A stretch of DNA of 64,000 nucleotides from Candidatus Babeliales bacterium (GCA_963743635.1 CAVUQO010000003.1:416001-480000), one strand, 5' to 3'. Counted from the first letter of the stretch, positions 1 to 63,292 are shown. Program-made: numbers and translations. The notes: generated from the sequence alone by a model not told the origin.

Positions 1-811
1 CTGTAGTTGTAGTAGTTGTCGTTGAGATAGAATTGTGTGTTTTACTCGTATCAATCTCATCATCCTGATGAGTCTGCGTAGACTTTTCTGATTTACTTGT
101 ATCATTGCTGCGCACAGGAGCAGGTATCAGTATGTGTTCATCACATCGTTTTTTAGCCAAAAGGGCATCCAATTCTCGAGATAACTGCATATCATCGGGC
201 GATGTGCCTTGAACGAATCTAATGGTTTTTGATATGGCGTCTAATCGAGCTCGTTCGACTTCAGCAAGTGCGATGAGTTCTTCGCGCTCCTCTTTCCATC
301 GTTTGAGCATTGCCATTACTTGTTTGTCGGTTTCTTCGAGCGACGCTTTTTTTTGTGCAGCGTAATAATTTGCAAGTGGCTCTCGAAGTAACTGTGCATA
401 CGCAGGGTTCATAGAATATTGTAATTCTACTTCAGTTTTATGTGCGTTATTGTAGCTTGCAACTTTTGTCAGCAATCTGACCAGGGTAGCAATATCATTA
501 GCTTTATAGAGATCGTCTATTGACGCATTAAGATTATTGCATCTGTCTTTGAGATTAGAGGTTGCCTTGCTGGGGTGATCCAGTTCGTCTTCGAGCAACG
601 CGGCGCGGCCATTCATTTTTCGTTGTATACCAACAACGACTGCATGGGTTGCATCTGTGGCAGTAGTAGCGGCAGCAGATGCAGCAGCTGATAGGGCCCT
701 ACCGGTAGTCGTTTTTATATTCTCGAATAGATTGTCCATTGCATGAACATGCGGTATTGAAGTGAGAGATATGAAACCGAGAACAATAGTGTGAAACTTT
801 AAGTTTTTCAT
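1..811 (-). CDS. Secreted hypothetical protein, partial (runs off the window start)
   Basis: Read manually: ATG at 811 after a GGAG RBS, MKNLKFHTIVLGFISLTSIPHVHA|MDNLFEN...; signal peptide; absent from the ORF track, consistent with no stop inside the window. Confidence 0.75.
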   Translation of the reverse strand, partial: MKNLKFHTIVLGFISLTSIPHVHAMDNLFENIKTTTGRALSAAASAAATTATDATHAVVVGIQRKMNGRAALLEDELDHPSKATSNLKDRCNNLNASIDDLYKANDIATLVRLLTKVASYNNAHKTEVELQYSMNPAYAQLLREPLANYYAAQKKASLEETDKQVMAMLKRWKEEREELIALAEVERARLDAISKTIRFVQGTSPDDMQLSRELDALLAKKRCDEHILIPAPVRSNDTSKSEKSTQTHQDDEIDTSKTHNSISTTTTTTT

Positions 812-1014
812 TGATATCTCCTTCCTAAGGCCCTGATATTTTGGAGGTAGTGTATATTTTTTCATTTAGCAACGCAAAGAAAATGTGTGTTAGCTATTCG
901 CATAGGCTTGCGTCATATGGCAAATCATATATGCTATGGGAAATAGATCTGCGCAAACCTGCGCGTATTACTAAAGATCATATGTTTAACACACTCAAAA
1001 AAGAGGATCGCTTT

Positions 1015-2118
1015 ATGAAGAGTGCTTCAATGGTACGTAAATCATTATCAATTTCATTGTTAGTAGTAACACTTGCAATGCTCCCTGGATGTTCTCCTTT
1101 TGACTGGTTTAAAACGCAAAGTGGCTCCGATAACGCGGCCGTCGCTGAGTCAGGTGAAAAAGGCATGCCTGCTGGAGACCAAAAGTCTGCAAAAGAAGCC
1201 GCAATGCCTGGCGATGTTCTTGTTTCTATGGATGGCAAACCAGTGGTAACCAAAGCAGATCTTGAAGAACAATATCGACAAGTAATCGAATCACAACCTG
1301 AATTGGCAAAGCTTGAAGGCTGCGTAAAAGATAGTTTATTACAAGGTTTGGTAAAACAAGCAGTAGTAGATCGCGCTGCAAAAGATAATAAGCTTAAAGA
1401 AAGTGCCGAATACAAGAAAGATCTTGCTTTGATGTATGATCATTGCGAAAAGATTTTGAATCTGAAGTATTTCAGAAAAATGTTTGAATCAGAATTGGAA
1501 GTAACTAAGGCTGAAGTTAAAGATTTTTATGACAAAAACAAAGGCAACTTTAATGAGTTGATTCTTGATCATGGTGGCGTTGAAACTAGAGGAGTTTCAT
1601 TTGATAAAAAAGCTGATGCTGAAGCATTCCTTGCTAAGGTAAAAGCCGCACCAAAAGATTTCGATAAACTTGCACAAGCATTCCCTCCAAAAGATGTATT
1701 CCAAGCTTTTGTACAAGCACACAGTCCAAATGTTGACGTAGCGATTAAGACCGCGGTTGCTGCAATGAAGAGTTTCCCTAAGATTGAAATGGTAACTACT
1801 GCAGCTAACGTGTACTGGGTAATCAATGCAACGAGCAGAAAAGAACCACAATACCGTCCATTGGATAAAGACATCGAAGCAGGTTTGACTGAGTTAATCA
1901 AACAAGAAAAAGAAGCAAAAGTAATGCGCACTAAGATGGAAGAATTAGAAAAGAAATATAATGTTAAAGTCAACCATGCGGCATTGCAAAGCGCACAAAC
2001 TCAAATTGATTTTGAACAATCATTGGGCATGATGCTTGATAATGATACGCAAGTTGCAGAAGCTGATCTTGATCAAACAGCTGAATCAGCTGCTAATCAC
2101 ACAGCACACGTTGCATAA
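1015..2118 (+). CDS. PrsA/PpiC-like parvulin-type foldase lipoprotein
   Basis: Lipobox-like LPGC, SurA-N-like VLVSMDGKPVVTKADL, EVTKAEVKDFYDKNK and a degenerate rotamase segment; start probably MKSASM at 1015. Confidence 0.7.
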   Translation: MKSASMVRKSLSISLLVVTLAMLPGCSPFDWFKTQSGSDNAAVAESGEKGMPAGDQKSAKEAAMPGDVLVSMDGKPVVTKADLEEQYRQVIESQPELAKLEGCVKDSLLQGLVKQAVVDRAAKDNKLKESAEYKKDLALMYDHCEKILNLKYFRKMFESELEVTKAEVKDFYDKNKGNFNELILDHGGVETRGVSFDKKADAEAFLAKVKAAPKDFDKLAQAFPPKDVFQAFVQAHSPNVDVAIKTAVAAMKSFPKIEMVTTAANVYWVINATSRKEPQYRPLDKDIEAGLTELIKQEKEAKVMRTKMEELEKKYNVKVNHAALQSAQTQIDFEQSLGMMLDNDTQVAEADLDQTAESAANHTAHVA

Positions 2119-2139
2119 ACGTAACGATAAACATACACT

Positions 2140-2175
2140 AAAGGGGAGCGTCTGAGTAAGACGTTCCCCTTTTTG
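2140..2175 (+). terminator. Rho-independent terminator
   Basis: AGGGGAGCGTCT-loop-AGACGTTCCCCT followed by a T-tract. Confidence 0.75.
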
Positions 2176-2223
2176 TTTAGATGCAAATAAAAAACGGTCA
2201 CATGAATTTCGTTAGGGAGTATA

Positions 2224-61144: not shown

Positions 61145-61503
61145 TCTTGTGCTTTGATCTCGTTGAAAATGTTTTCAAGCTTCATTTGCTTTTCAAACTT
61201 ATCATCATATTTAAAGACGATGTTTGGCACATGGCGAGAAGGAACGCGTTGCGCGAGCGCTTTGCGCATTGATGGTTTATAGAGGATCAGCACTGAACGG
61301 ATTGGATTAAATGCCTCAAGTCCGCCCGGAATATAAAAGTATATATCGCATACACTTTTATTGGGGGAAAGTTTTACGTGTGTTATGAATGCCCCAACAA
61401 GACGAGGGTCATCCATAGAGATTTGGAGAAAGAGTTGAGAAAGCTCTTTGAGTAAAAGAGCTTCTTTTTGAGCTTTTCGTATTTCAGGTAACTTGTTATT
61501 CAT
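61141..61503 (-). CDS. rbfA: Ribosome-binding factor A
   Basis: DPRL...ITHVKLSP...RHVPNIVFKYD. Confidence 0.85.
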   Translation of the reverse strand: MNNKLPEIRKAQKEALLLKELSQLFLQISMDDPRLVGAFITHVKLSPNKSVCDIYFYIPGGLEAFNPIRSVLILYKPSMRKALAQRVPSRHVPNIVFKYDDKFEKQMKLENIFNEIKAQE

Positions 61504-61509
61504 AGAAAG

Positions 61510-61728
61510 TTACTTTAAAAGCCCTTGTGCTGCTAAACGGATGAAGTTCTGCTTAATAGCGCGAACCAAGCGTTTGCGACGTTTTTGGGTAGGAGCTTCG
61601 AAATAAACGGTACGTTTCATATCGCGAACAACACCTTCACGTTCAATTTTTTTCTTGAGCTGGCGGAGTGCGCGTTCAATGTTTGAACTGACTGAAACTT
61701 CGATATTTGCTTTACGGGACTTTGACAT
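61510..61728 (-). CDS. rpsU: 30S ribosomal protein S21
   Basis: IERALRQLKKKIEREG, YFEAPTQKRRK. Confidence 0.9.
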   Translation of the reverse strand: MSKSRKANIEVSVSSNIERALRQLKKKIEREGVVRDMKRTVYFEAPTQKRRKRLVRAIKQNFIRLAAQGLLK

Positions 61729-61855
61729 AGTAACCTAAAAACCTTCCTCATTATCAGGGATAGACGTAATATAACTGGGGAATAACACTATTATAGCCTC
61801 CATGATACGCAATTTTGCCTGATTTGTCTATGGTTATATACGAGATGGCCTTGAA

Positions 61856-63292
61856 TTAGAACATGGCATTGAAGCCAAACATAATGGTGGTGCTGCGGAA
61901 GGCATTGTACTGGGATAAAGGTGCCTGCCAGAGGAAGCCAAGGGATATCTGAGGGGAAATGTCGTAATTGAAGCCCATGTTGGCCACTTGTACCCTGAAA
62001 GTAGACAGTTTTTCAAGAATTTCTGGCTTGAAAGCGCAGCCGGGATTTGGCTGATCAAGCTTAATGCTATCATCCTTATGGATTACCAGTACGTATTGGA
62101 AGTAGAAGGAGAGCATGCCCATAAAATGGTAGGCGTTCATTTTGGCAGTGAAATGGATATTTGACCCTGGATTTATGTTAACGCCGGTAGTGAAGGGGTA
62201 AATTCCTGATTGGTATATGCTGGTGGGTACGTGATAATTATTGAAATGTCTGCTAAAAAAGTGGGTTAAACCAGCTTCGCCGCCAATTTCGATGGTATCA
62301 GCAAAGTCTACGTTAATACCAGCGGTAAAGCCTACCGAGTCGTGATTTTGGTTACCAAAGGAAAGGGCAAAGGTTTCATTCGGGTCATATTTCTTATTGG
62401 TCGATACGGTACCACCAAATTTAAAGAATGGTATGAGAAGGAAGTTCATCCATTCATCCCGATAGGTATTCATAGGATATGCATGGCGCCAGTACAGAAA
62501 TGCCCGAATATCTTCAACCGAGAAGGCGTTAAAATCGCTGATATCATAGCAAATTTCACGCATAATAATTTGGTAGGGTCCCATTAAATATTGATCGATA
62601 TTTGCTTTGGTAAGATCTGGATTGAAACAATCGGTATTGGCCGGATTGCAAGGATTGAGTGGACTTGGCAAGGGATTTCCGTATACGTCTTCAATCGTTA
62701 AGTTAATGAAATTGCAGGGGACTTGTGAAATATTAGCAAGGCCTACATCAAGCGAGAAGCCGACATCGCCAACGATTTGCGTTTCAAGATTAAACCGCAC
62801 GCCATATTTGCGATAGGTGGCAGGTATCGTGAAAAAACCATTGAGTTGTTGAGGGTCAACTGCGTAAGGATCAGTAATTGGTTCGCCAGCTGGCTGGTTA
62901 GGAAATAGTTTTTGACGTGCCAACTCCAAAGCAGGCGGCAATGAATAGCCTTCAGGAATAGGCCCCATTAAAAGTCCGACCATGCTCCAGCGGCCATTGA
63001 TGTCGCCCAAGGGAACGATGTTTTGACATTTATCACGCCCAACTTTTGCCTGTTGACCGAAAGGAGATATTGAAAGCGTAACGCGTTGCGGTTTGTTGTC
63101 GACAGCATAACCATTGAGCAATTGTTTTTCGCGGGTGAGTACAAAAGTTTGCGGATCGAGTGTTTTAAAGATTGGGAAAGGATCATTCCGATTATCTTCA
63201 GTCATTGCATGGACTGTTTGAATACTGACACTTAATCCGATCAAGAGGATTAACCGTGTATATAAGTGGTATGCGGTGCTTCTCACTAACAT
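61856..63292 (-). CDS. Putative outer-membrane beta-barrel protein
   Basis: VHA|M signal peptide, alternating aromatic strands, C-terminal FGFNAMF. Confidence 0.55.
   Translation of the reverse strand: MLVRSTAYHLYTRLILLIGLSVSIQTVHAMTEDNRNDPFPIFKTLDPQTFVLTREKQLLNGYAVDNKPQRVTLSISPFGQQAKVGRDKCQNIVPLGDINGRWSMVGLLMGPIPEGYSLPPALELARQKLFPNQPAGEPITDPYAVDPQQLNGFFTIPATYRKYGVRFNLETQIVGDVGFSLDVGLANISQVPCNFINLTIEDVYGNPLPSPLNPCNPANTDCFNPDLTKANIDQYLMGPYQIIMREICYDISDFNAFSVEDIRAFLYWRHAYPMNTYRDEWMNFLLIPFFKFGGTVSTNKKYDPNETFALSFGNQNHDSVGFTAGINVDFADTIEIGGEAGLTHFFSRHFNNYHVPTSIYQSGIYPFTTGVNINPGSNIHFTAKMNAYHFMGMLSFYFQYVLVIHKDDSIKLDQPNPGCAFKPEILEKLSTFRVQVANMGFNYDISPQISLGFLWQAPLSQYNAFRSTTIMFGFNAMF

Follow-up and report, generated by a model that had tools for sequence, protein, structure and literature searches.

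What does it mean that so many exported proteins of a bacterium would expose a second methionine (Met) as their new N-terminal residue once the signal peptide has been removed? The question is raised by a 64-kb stretch of DNA (the window, about 42% G+C) from a Candidatus Babeliales bacterium (GCA_963743635.1, CAVUQO010000003.1:416001-480000), the parent genome of which (labelled G000) comprises 1.45 Mb in three contigs. A preliminary description of the window had listed at least 13 exported proteins in which Met directly follows the signal peptide, and all 13 were found in place when the open reading frames (ORFs) were translated and the exact coordinates re-translated; a 14th site, HSA↓MY (the arrow marks the predicted cut, with -1 before it and +1 after it), had been absent from that list and brings the window tally to 14 (Table 1). 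As judged by eye, all 14 leaders have a positively charged n-region, a hydrophobic core of about 7-15 residues and a small residue at the end, which is directly followed by ATG, and a purine-rich GGA, GGAG or GGG lies within 20 bases upstream of the leader start in 12 of the 14 genes.

A two-residue motif at the predicted cleavage site

Signal peptides of the whole genome were called with a purpose-written heuristic rather than SignalP, and the cleavage sites discussed throughout are predicted ones. A greedy ORF caller that takes the most upstream start codon (1644 ORFs) was followed by a filter that kept N-termini combining a net-positive n-region with a hydrophobic core, by a position matrix self-trained iteratively on positions -12 to -1 only, and by a penalty on hydrophobic mature sequence from +3 on; since positions +1 and +2 are ignored by this pipeline, the residues found there are a free read-out. 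A signal-like N-terminus, i.e., one passing the n-region and h-region filter, was seen in 790 of the 1644 ORFs, and Met occupied +1 in 129 of the 464 cleavage sites predicted by the final pipeline (28%), with Ala coming next (41 sites) and the background Met frequency being 2.2% (binomial P of about 5e-100). The genome-wide comparison of +1 and +2 residues proposed in the preliminary description, here run with a heuristic of our own, thus bears out the enrichment of Met. A cruder pipeline gave 129/846 and a stricter rule-based version 100/514, and a predictor-free count of Ala-X-[DEQN] in the c-region window of the 790 N-termini found Met as X in 123 proteins, compared with 31 for Ala and 26 for Leu, while a control window placed 60 residues deeper in the same proteins held only 8 instances of Ala-Met-[DEQN]. 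If anything, Met is undercounted by the pipeline, which wrongly put the window genes starting at 52081, 43371 and 44520, as well as a WD40 family with the junction WRMGA↓ME, in the non-Met set. Cys at +1, as expected of a lipobox and signal peptidase II, was found in 5 of the 464 sites only, and the leaders of the Met set do not fit a lipoprotein signal.

The residue following this Met is far from random either. Asp, Glu, Gln or Asn (D/E/Q/N) stands at +2 in 90 of the 129 Met sites (70%; Asp 30, Gln 26, Glu 21, Asn 13), against 77 of the 335 non-Met sites (Fisher P = 3e-20); the same four residues make up 69/335 at +1 of the non-Met sites and about 26% at position 2 of the 319 ORFs that lack a signal-like N-terminus. 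At +2, Lys or Arg was seen in 2/129 Met sites against 47/335 non-Met ones, and bulky hydrophobic residues are likewise rare after Met. The motif is therefore one of two residues, with Met at +1 coupled to D/E/Q/N at +2. NatB acetylates Met-Asp/Glu/Asn/Gln N-termini, and 90 of the 129 predicted mature N-termini match this substrate class.

On the leader side of the cut, the -1 residue of the Met set is Ala in 111/129 (86%), Gly in 9 and Ser in 5, and the -3 residue is Ile (28), Leu (28), Val (23), Met (20) or Ala (12); since both positions entered the training of the matrix, this agreement at -1 and -3 is partly built in. In place of the usual Ala, Val or Ser, the -3 position is taken by Ile, Leu, Val or Met in 99/129 Met sites and 211/335 others, and -2 is often His, Gln or Tyr. 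The median leader length is 21 residues in both the Met and the non-Met set.

Bearers of the motif and its spread among relatives

Which proteins carry the motif was asked of the predicted exported proteins from G000:C3:1-400000 and the window, i.e., 153 of the 464 (50 in the Met set, 103 in the non-Met set), by means of a Pfam scan. Any Pfam match at all was obtained for 23 of the 50 Met-set proteins (six GNAT acetyltransferases, four C2H2 zinc-finger proteins, three M48 peptidases, two WD40-type proteins and single matches to Sel1, a STAND/AAA ATPase, a weak ankyrin and a weak TPR-like repeat), and none of the 50 matched a classical envelope family. Such envelope types accounted for 12 of the 103 non-Met proteins (secretin, BamD/YfiO, OmpA, an OMP barrel, a solute-binding protein, four thioredoxins, a penicillin-binding protein (PBP) transglycosylase, a pilin and a MraY-type transferase), a difference of 12/103 against 0/50 (Fisher P = 0.009). 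A homologue was found in the approximately 2.1 Mb sampled from eight relatives for 19/129 Met-set proteins against 107/335 non-Met ones (P = 2e-4). As far as these predicted sites and domain matches go, Met at +1 is a class-biased mark of lineage-specific, effector-like exported proteins with cytosolic or eukaryote-type domains, even if the split is not a clean one; the contrast between orphan or effector-like and periplasmic housekeeping proteins, which the preliminary description had suggested looking for, is in this sense present in the 153 proteins scanned.

Two groups of exported proteins deserve a mention of their own. A cluster of C2H2 zinc-finger genes, all with Met at +1, lies on L104 (G000:C3:220001-240000), at 4611-7571, 2474-4330, 7853-8689 and 866-1585, all on the minus strand; its largest protein matches zf-C2H2 at E = 8e-56, and the cluster might encode candidate host-aimed DNA-binding proteins. 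The exported GNAT acetyltransferases form an expanded group (11 of the 153 proteins scanned), examples being L111:1538-6429 (five tandem genes), L106:9340-10509 and L104:16353-19948. For 8 of the 10 that were checked, rimI was the best model, with scores of 23-29 bits against a cut-off of 86.4, which makes the assignment a lead only; their PDB sequence matches were weak and mixed, one protein having weak matches to Naa50 and ARD1.

Eight relatives of the same phylum (Dependentiae/Babeliales by inference; the other 58 genomes of the phylum that were considered are all in one order) were sampled for the same feature. The Dependentiae, parasites of protists, are a phylum that is widespread and almost without cultured members. 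Within the same family as G000, Met at +1 was found in 18/79 sites of G002 (22.8%; 400 kb), 12/51 of G009 (23.5%; 200 kb), 8/75 of G018 (10.7%; 318 kb) and 5/95 of G014 (5.3%; 400 kb), and in genomes of other families in 14/100 sites of G028 (14%; 400 kb), 5/75 of G058 (6.7%; 200 kb), 0/44 of G030 (200 kb) and 0/15 of G021 (165 kb), the sites themselves resembling those of G000 (A↓ME, S↓MD, G↓MN). Judging from these samples, the Met-at-+1 pattern is genome-wide and recurs at varying strength across the phylum. G030 and G021, the smallest genomes (0.8-0.9 Mb), serve as internal negative controls, and the premise of the preliminary description, namely that Met is not favoured at +1, fits these two same-phylum genomes.

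Two possible correlates of the pattern were considered and set aside. A link to a second signal peptidase I gene (LepB) is rejected because relatives with one LepB are rich in Met (G002 at 22.8% and G028 at 14%), while G014, also with one gene, stands at 5.3% and G000 has two; by a reading of the match table, LepB is present in two copies in several relatives and in one copy in others. The presence of a secretin does not discriminate either, as two or three secretin matches were found in each of the five relatives checked, both 0% Met genomes included.

As for the window itself, the gene at 25033-25713 has a tandem paralogue (25754-26461) with GA↓N in place of Met, and HAD hydrolase matches were obtained for the paralogue and none for 25033-25713. 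Homologues of the genes starting at 31087 (minus) and 36021 (plus) were sought in 30 relatives and none was found, whereas the probable outer-membrane protein at 61856-63292 has matches in all 31 genomes searched. The six genes of the array have the cleavage junctions WG↓MD, WG↓MQ, WA↓MD, WG↓MQ, WG↓MA and HA↓MD; DNA near-identical to window positions 41500-46500 occurs in peat and soil metagenome runs of at least two studies (word shares of 0.82 and 0.81), with no RNA run among those listed.

Table 1. Window sites with Met at +1 after a predicted leader (window coordinates; the arrow marks the predicted cut)
Site	Leader	Extent	+1 Met codon	Strand	Remarks
VHA↓MD	MKNLKFHTIVLGFISLTSIPHVHA	737..811 (leader 811-740)	739-737	-	gene continues beyond window start
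LHA↓MY	MFRKSITLTVMVLYMSIPLHA	6249..6314 (leader 6314-6252)	6251-6249	-	gene end 5457
SCA↓MA	MRKIVVSLCLLYAANSCA	13773..13829	13827-13829	+	gene end 14210; Pfam scan: no family
HSA↓MY	MITTLRNYALISICALSAHSA	25648..25713	25650-25648	-	gene 25033-25713; 14th case
IQA↓MQ	MKKHAYFTIITLFAVCLGNSIQA	31016..31087	31018-31016	-	gene end 30092; orphan; Pfam scan: no family
LHA↓MD	MKYIPYGLFAYTLLSALSLHA	36021..36086	36084-36086	+	gene end 36839; orphan
Six-gene array	21 codons, MNYKT...(W/H)(G/A)	42375..45528	42450, 42853, 43434, 44034, 44583, 45169	+	leader starts 42387, 42790, 43371, 43971 (GTG), 44520, 45106
GYA↓MD	MRSAYIYSLVLCLAGVSFGYA	52081..52146	52144-52146	+	gene end 52758; Pfam scan: no family
VHA↓MT	MLVRSTAYHLYTRLILLIGLSVSIQTVHA	63203..63292	63205-63203	-	gene 61856-63292, probable outer-membrane protein

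Retention of the methionine and the explanations that compete for it

Whether such a Met is a relic or is being maintained can be asked of families old enough for the residues surrounding it to have changed. In an exported family of approximately 180 residues (members in G000, G002 and G028 plus 22 public matches), Met stands right behind the leader in 14 of the 23 aligned members, which share 33-72% identity with the query; among the members at 53% identity or less it does so in 11 of 20, with leaders and +2 residues varying throughout (by our own reading of the alignment), and the three members from G000 all have Met at +1. Members of this family (G000:C2:17309-17848, L041:6642-7181 and L087:9784-10323, all on the minus strand) have a Gly-rich hydrophobic C-terminal half with a near-invariant ATGPV end, and its 22 public homologues bear no Pfam domain and no informative name, two being labelled “hypothetical protein”. 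In a second family, Met is present in all three leader-bearing members (A↓MEK, S↓MEK and G↓MDT; about 31-41% identity), the fourth, public sequence being leaderless. Among paralogue pairs within the genome that are 30-60% identical from the N-terminus, Met was common to both in 8/14, compared with 10/71 for the other +1 residues (P = 0.001, for pairs that are not independent of one another). The probable outer-membrane protein at 61856-63292 has Met in only 2 of its 12 orthologues, those of G000 and G018 (the closest relative by that protein), so that Met arose there in a protein already bearing a leader. As judged from such alignments, at least two deeply diverged families have kept Met more often than neutrality would predict, and a class-specific rule for the residue after the cut (P1') is probably under selection.

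In the six-gene array, the genes resemble one another in DNA from the ribosome-binding site through the 63-base leader up to the ATG, and no further. Genome-wide, leaders of at least 75% DNA identity stand before near-random mature parts in 44 genes, which make up 34 pairs in 15 paralogue families, non-Met families included; in examples such as G000:C3:699376-713739 and C2:1852-115078 the leader DNA is near-identical and the mature parts have diverged past ungapped recognition. Conservation of DNA limited to the leader suggests either gene conversion or a strong constraint confined to the leader.

The explanation favoured here, to which a rough probability of 0.4 is assigned, is that Met is the retained start codon of proteins recruited by leaders and has been kept by selection as a host-type, NatB-class N-terminus of effector-like exported proteins. 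A protein recruited to the secretome by the addition of a leader would have retained its own start codon as the +1 Met; were the exported product to act in the cytoplasm of the host protist, selection might then keep that Met, because a Met-Asp/Glu/Asn/Gln end would resemble that of a normal host protein and could thereby escape the N-degron pathways. These pathways destroy proteins that start with Asp, Glu, Asn, Gln, a basic or a bulky hydrophobic residue, the first four acting as destabilising ends in the Arg/N-degron branch of eukaryotes. The residues seen at +2 fit such a reading well. A start-codon origin is favoured by the residue being specifically Met, by its bearers being mostly proteins of cytosolic-type domains or new ones, and by the array similarity and the shared leaders described above.

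Several observations weigh against this explanation. Met is dispensable in the approximately 180-residue family, 9 of the 23 members of which lack it, and one and the same leader can be found both with and without it (e.g., ...GNIFA↓MNNDL and ...GNIFA↓NEPDD). None of the eight matches obtained from four queries was a leaderless homologue with its start aligned to the +1 Met, and a start-codon origin is therefore not demonstrated. The non-Met set also includes WD40, Ank, GNAT, Sel1 and M48 proteins (three of the WD40 ones being visibly mis-called Met sites), and the Met set includes the probable outer-membrane protein at 61856-63292, which is no effector. Finally, N-degron recognition would be avoided just as well with Ala, Ser, Gly, Thr or Val at +1, so stability alone does not account for Met, and NatB acts mainly on nascent chains, which makes its action on an imported protein uncertain.

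Among the alternatives, the best-surviving one, possible if doubtful, is that of a scar and nothing else, with leaders having joined before the start codons of cytosolic or newborn ORFs, Met being a neutral leftover in young genes and the +2 bias reflecting what export tolerates. It would account for the residue being Met, for the cytosolic-type or orphan nature and lesser conservation of its bearers (19/129 against 107/335), for the array similarity ending just past the ATG, and for near-identical leaders preceding unrelated mature parts, with Met or without it. It fares worse with the retention of Met in 14/23 members of a family in which the adjoining residues have changed, with a +2 preference of 70% that ordinary ORFs do not approach at position 2, with an ancestrally exported outer-membrane protein having Met in two of 12 orthologues only, and with the want of a leaderless homologue (0/8) starting at the Met. 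A rather doubtful alternative goes further than the favoured explanation and takes the Met-D/E/Q/N end as a host-directed N-terminal code, with effectors being acetylated by host NatB or by exported RimI-like GNATs of the parasite itself and so escaping destruction by N-degron pathways; released effectors would in that case share their type of N-terminus with a fifth of host proteins, a bacterial secretion signal would have evolved so as to leave a eukaryote-type end behind, and Met at +1 might, just as doubtfully, serve as a sequence-only effector marker across an uncultured phylum.

That the Met-acidic/amide end is a second-step sorting tag, read by an outer-membrane route (type II secretion, vesicles or another) that separates effectors from periplasmic residents, is unlikely. 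In its favour, the signal is class-specific and a secretin is encoded in the genome, and there are eukaryotic parasites in which a motif just past the signal peptide labels proteins bound for the host; on the other side, relatives with 0% Met have secretins too, families include members that do without the Met, no candidate receptor turned up, and the type II secretion signals known so far reside in the conformation of the protein and not in its N-terminus. Of the three options raised in the preliminary description (a sorting tag, a host-like N-terminus and the scar of grafted leaders), the first is left without support and a purely neutral form of the third is counted against; supported are the signal itself, its link to effector-like and orphan exported proteins and its coupling to +2.

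A quite unlikely reading places the rule on the side of the peptidase or the periplasm, with Met at P1' tuning cleavage by signal peptidase I or shielding the N-terminus from bacterial or external aminopeptidases. A lineage-specific +1 rule has a precedent (PMC5837995), and the abundance of Ile, Leu, Val and Met at -3 in both sets suggests a somewhat unusual peptidase, but the housekeeping substrates of that same peptidase lack Met and the number of LepB copies does not track it.

It is very improbable that the inner ATG initiates as well, giving rise to an exported and a cytoplasmic form of each protein. The +1 residue is indeed always an in-frame ATG at the junction, but a Shine-Dalgarno (SD)-like motif, sought 4-18 bases upstream of the codon, precedes 298/464 leader start codons and only 2/129 inner ATGs (9/335 for the +1 codons of non-Met sites), and the inner ATG as a second start is rejected on these counts; a DNA-level motif at the junction is rejected as well, because the Ala codons at -1 are used as in the genome at large. 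Barely credible is an artefact in which the leaders are untranslated sequence resembling signal peptides and Met is the true start, since, even though the ORF lists use the most upstream start and an AT-rich genome can yield hydrophobic reads of non-coding DNA, the ribosome-binding motifs lie at the leader start and not at the inner ATG, -1 is Ala in 111/129, the amino-acid sequence of the leaders is conserved both among paralogues and across the array, and a public protein collection contains full-length forms of four out of five window proteins and Met-start forms of none of the five. The leaders are of the ordinary Sec and signal-peptidase-I type, and their translation begins at an upstream start codon with a ribosome-binding site of its own.

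The machinery for them, a Sec translocon and signal peptidase I, is encoded, with one SecA match in the genome and two tandem signal peptidase I genes (LepB, Peptidase_S26) at G000:C3:523091-523945 and 524117-524866. SecY matches occur in three frames with one TGA, and the gene is thus split in the present assembly. Several other core genes are likewise found in overlapping or adjacent frames (the cases noted, SecY included, are at 10826-11185/11122-11607, 31304-32026/31962-33275 and 36885-37367/37398-37766 of the window and at G000:C2:374519-375510, and comprise a MreB-like and a MurG-like gene, both by eye, a PBP with a Transgly match and SecY), which might represent either assembly indel errors or pseudogenes.

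Known +1 rules and the place of this one among them

If the link to a protein class holds, a simple sequence mark would become available for picking candidate effectors among the thousands of orphan genes of a phylum in which about half of the genes carry export signals. It would also open the question of how bacterial proteins exported by Sec fare under the eukaryotic quality control of N-termini, and, on a more practical note, cleavage sites or start codons at junctions of this kind may be misplaced by signal peptide predictors and gene finders that were trained on other bacteria.

No published description of Met at +1 was found in full-text literature searches, and the feature is best placed by comparison with what has been described. 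The leaders are like those of the classical Sec/signal peptidase I system in their charged start, hydrophobic core, Ala at -1 (86%), median length of 21 and the encoded SecA, SecY and LepB, and they differ from it in having Met at +1 in 28% of sites, D/E/Q/N after 70% of those, and Ile, Leu, Val or Met at -3. The Met-Asp/Gln/Glu/Asn ends are those of the NatB class, except that here they are predicted to result from proteolysis of an exported bacterial protein and not from translation by a host ribosome. Within the Dependentiae, Chromulinavorax destructans is reported to carry signal peptides on 44% of its coding sequences, with an enrichment in ORFans and ankyrin proteins (PMC6561590), which resembles the secretome seen here (790/1644 ORFs signal-like) also in its kinds of domains; as neither “methionine” nor “N-terminal” occurs as a word in the main text of that paper, the Met feature is not described there.

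The closest parallel is the Q-rule of the Bacteroidetes, in which signal peptidase I substrates have Gln at +1 that is cyclised to pyroglutamate (PMC5837995). What the two have in common is a lineage-specific single residue right after the signal-peptidase-I cut, with a proposed influence on what becomes of the N-terminus so exposed. Most substrates, periplasmic ones included, come under the Q-rule, and its modifying enzyme is known (PMC5837995), whereas Met is confined here to an effector-like class (28% of sites), is coupled to +2 and has no known enzyme. Nor is there a dominance of the Q-rule type in this genome, where Met stops at those 28% of sites and is carried by none of the 12 classical envelope proteins, all of which fall among the 103 non-Met proteins scanned. 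Met would be a second lineage-fixed residue exposed by signal peptidase I, after the Gln of the Q-rule, and a class-specific one.

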